Source: a virus
Lineage: Duplodnaviria; Heunggongvirae; Uroviricota; Caudoviricetes
Length of the DNA: 29,299 nt
Virus record (IMG/VR): IMGVR_UViG_2737471869_000011
Direction: 5' to 3' (one strand)
Made by a program: the position numbers. Shown here one piece after another: positions 15,001 through 18,000 of this stretch. How positions within the stretch are numbered: position 1 is the stretch's first letter; each line of letters begins with the position of its first letter.

Positions 15001-18000
15001 GACCAGCGACTCACTGGCAAACGTACCGCTTTTGTAGTACGTCAGCGTGGGTTCTGTTCCGGCAAGCGCCAGAGTCAGCACCCCCACGGCCGTTCCGGCT
15101 TTCTGACCATCCCATGCCACCAGTTTACCGGTGGCGTCATCCAGCATCAGTGGCGTCAGTGCAGGCGTGGCGGCACTGATACCACTGGTGGCTTTTGCGG
15201 TATGCGCCGGATCGCTTCCGGCAAAAATGTTCACATCCGCGCGCTTTTCCGTGGTGGTTTTAATCATTTTTCAGTCTCCTGATTTATCTGAATTCCGGAT
15301 ATCGCTTACGGCATACTCATCAGCAGGTCTTCCTCCCCGCGCCCGGCAGTTCCGCCACCGGAAACCGCACTGGCAGCATGCTGTGCCATAAAGCGATCAA
15401 AAAGTGTTTCCTGTGACGGTTGCGATGCCACCGGCGCGGCTGCCAGCAGCGTTTTCGCCTGCGCCACCGTCATTCCAGGTTGTTCTGTCAGTGCCTGTGC
15501 AAGTTGCTCGCGCCCTTTCGCCTCCGGCAGCGCCATAATCTGATCGCCGACACTTGCAGAACCAGCAACCGGTGCCGCCGCCAGTAACGTTTTGGCCTGG
15601 TCAACGGTCATTCCCGGCTGTTCAGCCAGCGTCTGCGCGAGTTGTTCACGCCCTTTTGCTTCTGGTAACGCCATAATCTGATCGCCTGTGCCGGCAGCAG
15701 GGGCTGCCGCCAGAAACGCTTTCGCCTGCTCCACCGTCATCCCCGGTTGACCTGCCAGCATCTGTGCCAGTTGCTCACGCCCCTTTGCTTCCGGCAGCCC
15801 CATAATCTGATCACCTGTATTTGCCACACTGGCAGCAGGCACAGCAGCCAGGAACGCTTTCGCCTGCTCTACCGTCATTCCAGGCTGACCTGCCAGCATT
15901 TGCGCAAGTTGCTCGCGCCCTTTCGCCTCCTGACAATTCAGGATCTCCATCACGCGCTGATTTTCCTGGGCCACAGCCTCAATGATCGAAACATTCGTTT
16001 GCGACATATTTACCTCTCTATTAATTTCTTTATTTATTGCAGAAACCATCACTTCAACGGCATCTGCAGCATTAATCAGTTGATCAGCCAGGCCTGCATC
16101 AATCCCTGCCTGACCGTCATAAACGGCAGCCTCGGTATTCATCACCGCCTCTGAACTCAGCCCCGTATAAAGCGACACCTTGTCGACAAACATCCGGCGG
16201 GCCTCATCAATACGGCGCTGAAAATCTGCACGCACACCTGCCGGCAATGCCTGAATACTGTTGCCGTCAACCTTGTGCTGCCCGGAGTAAATCAGCGTGA
16301 TGTCCACCCCTTCCTGTGCCAGTTGTTTCTCGTAACTGGTGTGCGCCATCATCACGCCAATCGAACCAATTTTTGCCGTCTGCGTGACCAGCCGACGCGT
16401 ACAGGCTGCCGCCAGCAACATGGCGGCTGAACAGGCCATGTCATTACACAGCGCCCACACGGGCTTCTGTTCCCGCAGGCGGTAAATCATGTCAGCACAG
16501 TCAAACGCCCCGGCTGCCTGACCGCCCGGGCTGTCGATATCCAGCAAAATGCCGCGCACATCCGGATCATTCACCGCCATCTGAAGACGAGCAGTCAGAC
16601 CGTCATAGCCTGTCATGCCAGAGTAAGGCCGCAGGGTACCCAGTTTATGCACCAGCGTGCCGCTCACCGGCAGAATGGCGATGCCATTCTTCACCTGGTA
16701 ACTCTTTGCCGGACGCTGACCGCCCGCCATATAGTCAGTCACAGCCAGTTGCATACCATCAGCATCAAGCTGAACAGCCTGCTGAGGAACTGCAAGGCTG
16801 CCGGCCCCCATCTCTTTACCCAGCGCGCAAAAGAAAACCCGCGCATAGGCGGGTTCCAGTAAAAGCGGCTCATTAAATGCCATGGCGGCAATATGCGATA
16901 AATTACGACGCATCGCCTTTCTCTCCCGTTGTCTGTCGGATCTGCTGCTGAAACGTGTCCTTTATCCAGATGGGGCGGGGAAGACCAGCCGCCTGTCGCT
17001 CCTGGCTTTCACGCAGTTGCTGGCGGAAAATCTCCTGATAGTCATCGCCCATCAGGGCCAGTTCTTTCTCGTACGTGCTTAAACCACCTTCAATACGCAT
17101 CACCGCTTCCTGCACTTCCTTAAGGCCATCAATCGCCATGCGACCGGCACCAATCCACTCGGCACGGCACCACCCGGAACGGGCCTCCCAGAATGAGAAA
17201 CGGGATTTCGGTGGGCGGATCACACCACGAATAAGGGCTTCTTCCAGCCAGCAGGCAAACATCTGTGACGCCAGTCGGCTGGCCACAAATTTTCGTTTCC
17301 CCATAAAATACCGCCACGACTCATTGGCGGATGCCCGGGCACTGGAATAACTGACCTGTGAATAATCACGGGAAAGCTGCTCATAGGACACCCCCAGCCC
17401 GGCAGCGATGTAACGTAACAGCGCCTTTTCCAGTTCAGAGAAACCATTATCCGCATTCTGTGCTGTCTGCAGATTCAGTGAATCCCCCGGATAAAGATGC
17501 GGAATACGAACCCCTCCCATCTTTACCCCATTGATGGCGTAATAGTGCGCATAGCCTTTCATGATGGCTTTCAGCGGGTTTTTACTGTCATCCCCCACCC
17601 CGGCGATATATTCAAATGCTTTTTCCGAATCCAGTGTGGATTCAATCGTCGCGGCATACATCGCCCGCACCATCGCCGACTGCAGTTGCGTGGCCTGCAG
17701 TGTGTCGAGCATCTTGAGGCGCTCCATGACAGAGTAAAACTGGTTTGCCCCGCGCGTCTGCCCGTCCTCCTGCGGCTGAAACACATGGATCATGCCCGGT
17801 CTTCCGGAGGGCAGAGTCGCCGTAATCCGTGTCCAGTTACTGACACTGTAACCCGGCCAGTCATCATCCTGAACATGGTAGGCTATCGCCTTTCCGTGCC
17901 GGCTGATTTCCACTCCGGCACGCATAAAACGATCGCCGATGCCATAACCGGGCGTACTGACGCGCTTCGGACTGATGGTCTTGAATTTTGTTCTGAATAA

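Follow-up and report, generated by a model that had tools for sequence, protein, structure and literature searches.

The DNA analysed here, called the window throughout, is a 29,299-nt stretch of tailed-phage sequence (Caudoviricetes; IMG/VR record IMGVR_UViG_2737471869_000011), and the element under study is an in-frame tandem-repeat array in its lambda-C-like prohead protease gene. A prophage of E. coli 08-00022 (NZ_CP013662.1) matches the window with 100% identity. The gene order around the array is gpW-portal-C-D-E; the open reading frames (ORFs) flanking the protease gene matched the Pfam families gpW, Phage_portal_2, HDPD and Phage_cap_E, and FI, FII and both terminase subunits are likewise encoded in the window. 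Capsid protein E is identical to its lambda counterpart at 199 of 342 positions, and D at 57 of 111.

The protease gene is a minus-strand ORF of 535 amino acids (aa). It matched PHROG 53, head maturation protease (E-value 1e-207), and Pfam Peptidase_S49 (PF01343; E-value 2.5e-33, 115.7 bits against a cut-off of 24.9), and 185 of 296 residues (62%) of its protease part are identical to those of lambda C. Residues Ser162 (16428-16430) and Lys214 (16272-16274), which from the S49 and lambda gpC literature we take to be the predicted catalytic dyad, match Ser166 and Lys218 of lambda C in the alignment, with a conservation of at least 90% across 28 homologues. TIGR00706 (SppA) matched the protein below its cut-off, and the weak Pfam matches Bac_DNA_binding, DUF732 and Peptidase_C23 were all under their own cut-offs.

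A four-unit array in the scaffold part of gene C

In the whole window, Tandem Repeats Finder reported a single array of large period (15433-15930; period 138, 3.7 copies, 75% matches, score 473), and a direct-repeat search found a 230-nt direct repeat with a spacing of 267 in the same region. The array is in frame with the 535-aa ORF, and translation of the ORF resolved it into four units at 15423-15929 on the minus strand (138, 129, 138 and at least 102 nt), every one of which begins with EAKGREQLAQ (Table 1). A profile of the 31-aa core found exactly four copies in the window protein. An earlier sequence-only reading of the window had described four in-frame copies of a helical module of about 45 aa in the Nu3-equivalent scaffold part of a lambda-C-like gene. 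Tandem Repeats Finder, translation and the profile bore out the coordinates and unit sizes of that description, and Pfam, PHROG, the core profile and the alignment with lambda placed the array in the same part of the gene. PHROG 8940 and PHROG 8399 (capsid assembly and head scaffolding protein) each matched the window protein with four to five stretches. The C-terminal tail that follows unit 4 comprises 38 non-repeated aa with two short predicted helices.

Repeats of this size may be collapsed or expanded by assembly, a concern raised with the first description. Eleven complete E. coli genomes, from one human and ten bovine isolates, carry the 881-nt array region with 100% identity, as does the IMG/VR contig L052. 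Between units the nucleotide difference is 17-24%, so the units assemble unambiguously. Assembly error is excluded as the source of the array. Apart from these 11, most matching complete genomes carry a four-copy form that is about 7-8 nt longer over this stretch; at least 80% of the 881-nt region was covered in 98 of all 105 matching genomes. The linker of unit 2 has a 9-nt (3-aa) deletion at window 15690-15700 (AAPAAGTG against AAPAASTAGTG or AAPAAGAAGTG), which accounts for a length of 535 aa against 538 aa in most four-copy relatives. Length and sequence of the linkers are the most variable part of the array.

Table 1 Features of the window and of related loci (aa numbering of the 535-aa protein; positions are those of the window unless another locus is named)
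Feature	Position	Strand	Remarks
Lambda-C-like S49 prohead protease with C-terminal scaffold region	15306..16913	-	535 aa plus stop; Pfam, PHROG, lambda alignment, synteny
S49 peptidase domain	16044..16478	-	aa 146-290
Shine-Dalgarno-like GAGAGGT	16012..16018	-	4 nt upstream of in-frame ATG at 16007
Candidate nested scaffold gene (Nu3 equivalent)	15306..16007	-	233 aa from Met303, in frame with C; comparative basis
Lead-in helix of unit 1 (MEILNCQ)	15930..15950	-	homologous to lambda IMGILNCE and to the linker-ending DQIMALP
Unit 1	15792..15929	-	aa 329-374, 138 nt
Unit 2	15663..15791	-	aa 375-417, 129 nt; linker 9 nt shorter than in the 538-aa majority form
Unit 3	15525..15662	-	aa 418-463, 138 nt
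Unit 4 core	15423..15524	-	aa 464-497; copy aligning with the single unit of lambda
Single-copy C-terminal tail (SQPSQETLFDRFMAQH...EEDLLMSMP)	15309..15422	-	homologous to lambda tail ALDRLM...NDLLNTPV
Contractile-tail sheath	5939-7414
Contractile-tail baseplate-assembly-like	11141-12058
Contractile-tail tail fibre	8023-9282
Contractile-tail tape-measure-like	3292-4629
Isogenic series L054/L055, L050, L042	from ~nt 4985 in each locus		array

The repeated module is present once in lambda

Each unit is a helix-turn-helix-like module of 43-46 aa with the consensus IMxLPEAKGREQLAxxLAxQPGMTVEQAKxLLAAAP. The 31-aa core profile found exactly one copy of it in lambda C/Nu3, at aa 369-399 (EAHGREEQARVLAETPGMTVKTARRILAAAP, E-value 2.9e-13). 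The flanks correspond as well: lambda has the lead-in IMGILNCEEA, and the window protein VMEILNCQEA ahead of unit 1 and DQIMALPEA ahead of the units that follow, while the lambda tail ALDRLM...NDLLNTPV matches TLFDRFM...EDLLMSMP. Lambda C has 439 aa and the window protein 96 aa more, a surplus made up of three additional units less the shortening of the linker upstream of unit 1; the extra units thus explain the greater length that the sequence-only reading had noted. By these comparisons, the gene carries four copies of a module that is present once in lambda.

Conservation of the module was assessed over 360 distinct units. Positions I3, E8, A9, G11, R12, E13, A16, L19, A20, M25, A30, L34 and P38 are each at least 92% conserved. 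The module is better conserved than the tail, and nothing else in the family's scaffold region is conserved as strongly. The tail itself occurs once in every homologue, and its conservation extends to lambda (LDRxM ... LLxxxP).

The module is covered by no Pfam or NCBIfam model, and PDB sequence searches, for which the queries were the whole protein, the 233-aa scaffold part and a unit profile of 30 sequences, returned only SppA, through the protease domain. A 24-residue chain of PDB entry 9hqv (chain Un, containing AKGREALAEK) was considered as a scaffold fragment and rejected as a chance match, the entry code occurring only in papers on the apicomplexan mitoribosome.

The structure was predicted with AlphaFold2 in two runs, one of the 233-aa scaffold part (28-sequence alignment) and one of the last unit with the tail (126-sequence alignment). 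In alignment A5, 12 sequences with a missing first residue were padded with 'A', which affects column 1 alone. In each unit, the models placed a short lead-in helix, a helix 1 (EAKGREQLAxxLA), a QPGMT turn and a helix 2 (VEQAKxLLAA). Packing between units was not fixed (predicted local distance difference test, pLDDT, 62-63; predicted template modelling score, pTM, 0.23-0.25). Short helices without fixed packing fit the label 'intrinsically disordered' given to lambda gpNu3 in the title of Medina et al. 2011, as cited in PMC11565965.

Multi-copy arrays are confined to one enterobacterial lineage

Copy number was counted in relatives by hidden Markov model scans of the unit core. Among the close homologues, taken as the 120 best matches in a database of 5.8 billion protein clusters, one (a lambda-like fusion) had a single copy, 2 had two copies, 74 had three, 41 had four and 3 had five. 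The unit profile, run exhaustively against 1.84 billion cluster representatives (E<=0.001), returned 322 proteins; in the best 150 of these, re-scanned with an iterated profile, 136 had one copy, 9 had two and 4 had three. The S49 domain was found in 24 of 35 representatives scanned against Pfam. These counts indicate that a single copy is the general state and that multi-copy arrays are derived and confined to one enterobacterial lineage.

In addition, 85 loci were collected from IMG/VR and GTDB, for which the viral-contig scan was the productive one and the genome-contig scan gave only 5. The capsid protein is at least 95% identical to that of the window in 49 loci, of which 42 have four copies, 3 have two, 3 have three and 1 has five. 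In the neighbouring clade, with capsid proteins 78-86% identical, all 35 of 35 loci have three copies. Copy number is therefore not constant among relatives, a constant number being an outcome that would have refuted the sequence-only reading; it is decoupled from capsid protein sequence, yet each clade has a strongly predominant number. The isolated phage PhiR12_2_star carries three units, which shows that multi-copy arrays are compatible with a viable phage.

Rearrangements occur in some homologues. P0113 and P0114 break off within the last unit and continue, as fusions, into Gly/His-rich or tail-fibre-like sequence; the 657-aa P0044 carries an internal duplication taking in the nested-start region; in P0077 part of a unit is duplicated; and P0043 is a homologue that its source names a baseplate protein. 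These five probably reflect prophage decay or assembly chimeras.

The array is old and under purifying selection

Codon comparisons between the units showed that third positions are 42-68% identical and first and second positions 87-98%. In paralogous unit cores, whose proteins are 77-97% identical, the proportion of synonymous differences (pS, Nei-Gojobori counting) was 0.38-0.76, near saturation, and that of non-synonymous differences (pN) was 0.014-0.128. Units 1 and 2, for example, differ at 1 of 31 residues, and 16 of 31 codons differ synonymously. With synonymous sites saturated between units and hardly any change in the protein, the array is no recent duplication. Orthologous omega was 0.12 and 0.18 for the array, on a par with the 0.20 and 0.14 of the protease domain.

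The positional register of the units points in the same direction. Prophages of E. coli, Salmonella, Klebsiella, Edwardsiella and Trabulsiella share a three-copy array in common register, and in the three-copy proteins of Salmonella, E. coli, Klebsiella and Edwardsiella, units at the same position are more alike (identity 0.64-0.77) than units at different positions (0.50-0.62), so the triplication is older than these four lineages. These results indicate that the array is old and under strong purifying selection, with units evolving by birth and death. The expansion named in the sequence-only reading is not a fresh duplication.

Units are gained and lost rarely

Prophage L003, which shares its portal, D and E proteins with the window at 100% identity, has gained one unit from exactly the window's gene. 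Its five-copy protein, P0001, is encoded by the window gene plus one 129-nt unit, otherwise without a mismatch. The extra unit consists of the body of unit 2 and the last 9 nt of unit 1, with its junction in a 13-nt identity (GATCAGATTATGG). The L003 allele bears the signature of unequal exchange or slippage from the window's own allele.

A second set of alleles differs in the same manner. L054/L055 (two copies), L050 (three) and L042 (five) have flanks that differ by at most 1 nt in 1500, and they differ from one another solely by 0, 1 or 3 copies of one internal unit; the three internal copies in L042 are DNA-identical (138 nt). The series resembles a variable-number tandem repeat (VNTR).

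Within the window, the longest exact matches between units are 27, 18, 17 and 14 nt. The 27-nt match lies at the 5' ends of units 1 and 4 (15904-15930 and 15499-15525), and exchange at this site would remove 405 nt, with one lambda-like unit remaining. Such a single-unit allele was not seen in the window's lineage. Efficient RecA-dependent recombination requires a minimum of about this length. In most arrays the inter-unit matches are about as short, and variant alleles tend toward homogenised units, a tendency that the identity values give only qualitatively. We infer that synonymous divergence keeps the arrays stable, since codon divergence between units would limit homologous recombination, and that fresh duplicates make arrays VNTR-like.

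Instability is real but rare. The sequence-only reading had named the array a likely site of recombinational instability, and the unit gained in L003 bears this out in kind; the degree was overstated for the window's allele, as 42 of 49 loci keep four copies and 35 of 35 keep three. The IMG/VR loci L033, L034, L035 and L044 have four-copy arrays with two DNA-identical units (a 135-nt exact run). This pattern suggests loss followed by duplication, or gene conversion, restoring the clade-typical four, and it hints at selection on copy number itself.

A candidate nested scaffold gene with a putative start at Met303

In lambda, Nu3 is encoded in frame within C; its RefSeq start is Met239, giving 201 aa. 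In the window, an in-frame ATG at Met303 is preceded by a Shine-Dalgarno-like motif (context GAGAGGTaaatATG, window 16005-16018), and its product would begin 25 residues upstream of unit 1. A Shine-Dalgarno motif with an ATG stands at the homologous position in lambda (AGGAGGgcgaATG; Met309, 131-aa product), in PhiR12_2_star (AGGAGGcactATG) and in the three-copy locus L004 (AGGAGaatacgATG); the position is thus kept in four lineages though the neighbouring residues differ. Two other candidate starts exist in the window, M241 (16193) and M258 (16142).

On this comparative support, an internal start would most likely lie at the Met303 site, with M241 and M258 also possible. If Met303 is used, the nested product would have 233 aa, against 131 or 201 aa in lambda from the homologous and the annotated Met, respectively; the altered scaffold length that the sequence-only reading held possible stands on this proviso. 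The RefSeq start of nu3, Met239, has no good Shine-Dalgarno motif in lambda, and the alignment shows no Met counterpart in the window. At lambda Met309 (L001 2543-2545; about nt 5342 of the lambda genome), the Shine-Dalgarno motif is a perfect AGGAGG with a 4-nt spacer. PHROG 8399, head scaffolding protein, is a profile of 131 positions. The true start of Nu3 in lambda-type phages may deserve re-examination.

Proposed role of the array

How the scaffolds of tailed phages engage capsid and portal is poorly defined, notably in lambda, where PDB searches found no solved structure of Nu3. Lambda Nu3 is essential (PMC10695390); it is needed for portal incorporation, and interactions with E, C, B and itself have been reported (PMC3224144). 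We consider it probable that the array repeats the lambda-type C/Nu3 helical module four-fold, is old and has been maintained by selection, and we propose that it makes a multivalent scaffold. Our best guess is that the extra modules would serve multivalent scaffold binding. As in lambda, the scaffold region would be made in two forms, the C-terminus of the protease and a nested scaffold protein, the first of which would target the protease into the procapsid. Each unit would combine a small lead-in helix with a helix-turn-helix, and the charged EAxGRE surface is the putative binding site for a partner, with capsid protein E, portal B or another scaffold or protease molecule as candidates. Four flexibly linked units would render the scaffold multivalent, and the single C-terminal tail would act as a separate anchor. 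After assembly the protease would degrade the scaffold, possibly at the Ala/Pro/Gly-rich linkers. Copy number itself changes by unequal exchange or slippage at short homologies. The unit is favoured as the binding module because it is the best-conserved element and keeps the charged surface of E8, R12 and E13.

Several points weigh against this interpretation. With one and the same capsid protein, 2 to 5 copies are tolerated, which might just as well mean that unit number is of little consequence. The unit has no homology, in hhalign and PDB searches, to the coat-binding helix-turn-helix of P22 or to any solved structure, and both AlphaFold2 models have a mean pLDDT of about 62, so that even the fold is tentative. 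The RefSeq start of lambda nu3 is a different Met (M239), and the window offers three candidate starts. PhiR12_2_star, which alone among the phages examined is an isolate, lies outside the window's own clade (64% identity). Where arrays have DNA-identical units, their copy numbers were read from draft assemblies and are possibly misestimated.

A more general proposal, which we put forward tentatively, is that the valency of lambda-type scaffolds resides in the Nu3 module, with a copy number that is evolvable and selected (one in lambda, three in one enterobacterial clade, four in the window's clade). If this proposal were true, codon scrambling would be maintained for suppressing recombination, homogenised arrays would be VNTR-like and pruned back to the clade-typical number, and the natural series from one to five copies, in which the capsid protein is unchanged, would be a ready-made system for studying the control of nucleation, portal incorporation and T=7 fidelity by scaffold valency.

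The explanation that survives best beside multivalent binding, though we regard it as rather unlikely, treats the units as helical spacers, interchangeable and joined by cleavable linkers, that do no more than set the mass or reach of the scaffold in the procapsid; binding of the capsid protein would then lie solely in the single-copy tail. Other scaffolds are anchored in this way, and so is the HK97 protease, by its extreme C-terminus. That the tail is conserved with lambda and single-copy in every homologue would fit such a division of labour, as would copies varying from 2 to 5 with an unchanged capsid protein and models without inter-unit packing. Moreover, lambda has an unrelated linker of about 53 aa where the window phage has its extra units, so nested length is partly compensated. 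A mere spacer, however, would not hold E8, R12 and E13 at 92% or more over 360 distinct units, nor would it give a paralogous pN down to 0.014 with saturated pS, and the unit is conserved better than the tail.

A recent and effectively neutral expansion in a decaying prophage, with the array as an unstable duplication hot spot whose copy number is unselected, comes near to the sequence-only reading and would account for the recent gains and losses of units and for rearranged relatives such as the tail-fibre-like fusions P0113 and P0114. We hold it to be improbable: synonymous saturation and an omega of 0.12-0.18 are marks of long-term purifying selection that largely refute it, four copies in 42 of 49 loci and three in 35 of 35 sister-clade loci do not suit an unselected number, and the gene and its head-module neighbours are intact. 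That the array is an artefact or a DNA-level element (an assembly error, a set of DNA sites or a gene on the opposite strand, where a 135-aa ORF at 15747-16154 overlaps it) has a negligible chance, given identity in 11 complete genomes and one IMG/VR contig and a codon pattern, scrambled at third positions and kept at positions 1 and 2, that conserves the minus-strand protein and not the DNA or the antisense frame. The antisense ORF is most likely spurious because conservation follows the minus-strand codon phase.

Comparison with known systems

The closest known counterpart is lambda gpC/gpNu3, which shares with the window the gene order W, B, C/Nu3, D, E, the succession of lead-in, unit and tail, the Ser and Lys positions, and a Shine-Dalgarno motif with ATG at the homologous internal position. 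It differs in having one unit instead of four, in a non-homologous linker of about 53 aa upstream of the unit (about 25 aa in the window), in the length of the nested product, and in its tail module, which is unlike the contractile one of the window prophage.

Phage P22 offers a functional parallel, as its scaffold gp8 binds coat protein through a helix-turn-helix at the C-terminus (PMC11565965). Both systems have a small helix-turn-helix, in the window a predicted one, near the C-terminus of a largely flexible scaffold, and we use the likeness as a working functional analogy only: with a validated gp8 sequence, hhalign gave a probability of 1.7% over 12 columns at gp8 217-228, outside the extreme C-terminal helix-turn-helix part. 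Unlike the units of the window, the gp8 domain is single-copy and not fused to a protease. The P22 scaffold is recycled, not degraded. The scaffold of phage D3 was considered as a relevant parallel and set aside, being an HK97-type delta domain.

SppA of B. subtilis and E. coli (S49) has a homologous protease domain (PDB 4kwb and 3rst, E-value ~6e-17) and lacks the scaffold module. In evolutionary mode alone, the array resembles polyubiquitin, an unrelated protein with an unrelated function; for polyubiquitin-type arrays, strong purifying selection with birth-and-death evolution has been reported (Nei, Rogozin and Piontkivska 2000). Near-identical proteins, saturated synonymous differences and occasional gain or loss of a unit are common to both. 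Unlike polyubiquitin in this comparison, some lineages here have freshly homogenised, DNA-identical units.

Literature searches on repeats in Nu3-type scaffolds found nothing specific, and neither the limits of the module nor its tandem rise to 2-5 copies in one lineage nor the isogenic alleles appear to have been described in the libraries and literature searched. The gene family and the principle of a nested scaffold are classical; the result refines the lambda C/Nu3 paradigm and leaves current views standing. It pinpoints one conserved module of about 38 aa in the Nu3 region whose number varies naturally from 1 to 5 with an unchanged capsid protein, and the isogenic copy-number alleles are defined constructs for asking whether scaffold valency or scaffold length affects assembly. 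Long-term stabilisation of in-frame arrays in phage structural genes by synonymous divergence also bears on annotation and on the judgement of assembly errors.

Prophage context

The prophage is a mosaic of a lambda-type packaging and head module (Nu1, A, W, B, C/Nu3, D, E, FI, FII; 13835-21117) and a contractile-tail module (1529-13421), the parts of which are listed in Table 1. The related isolated phage PhiR12_2_star has the lambda-type tail genes Z and U in place of the contractile tail.

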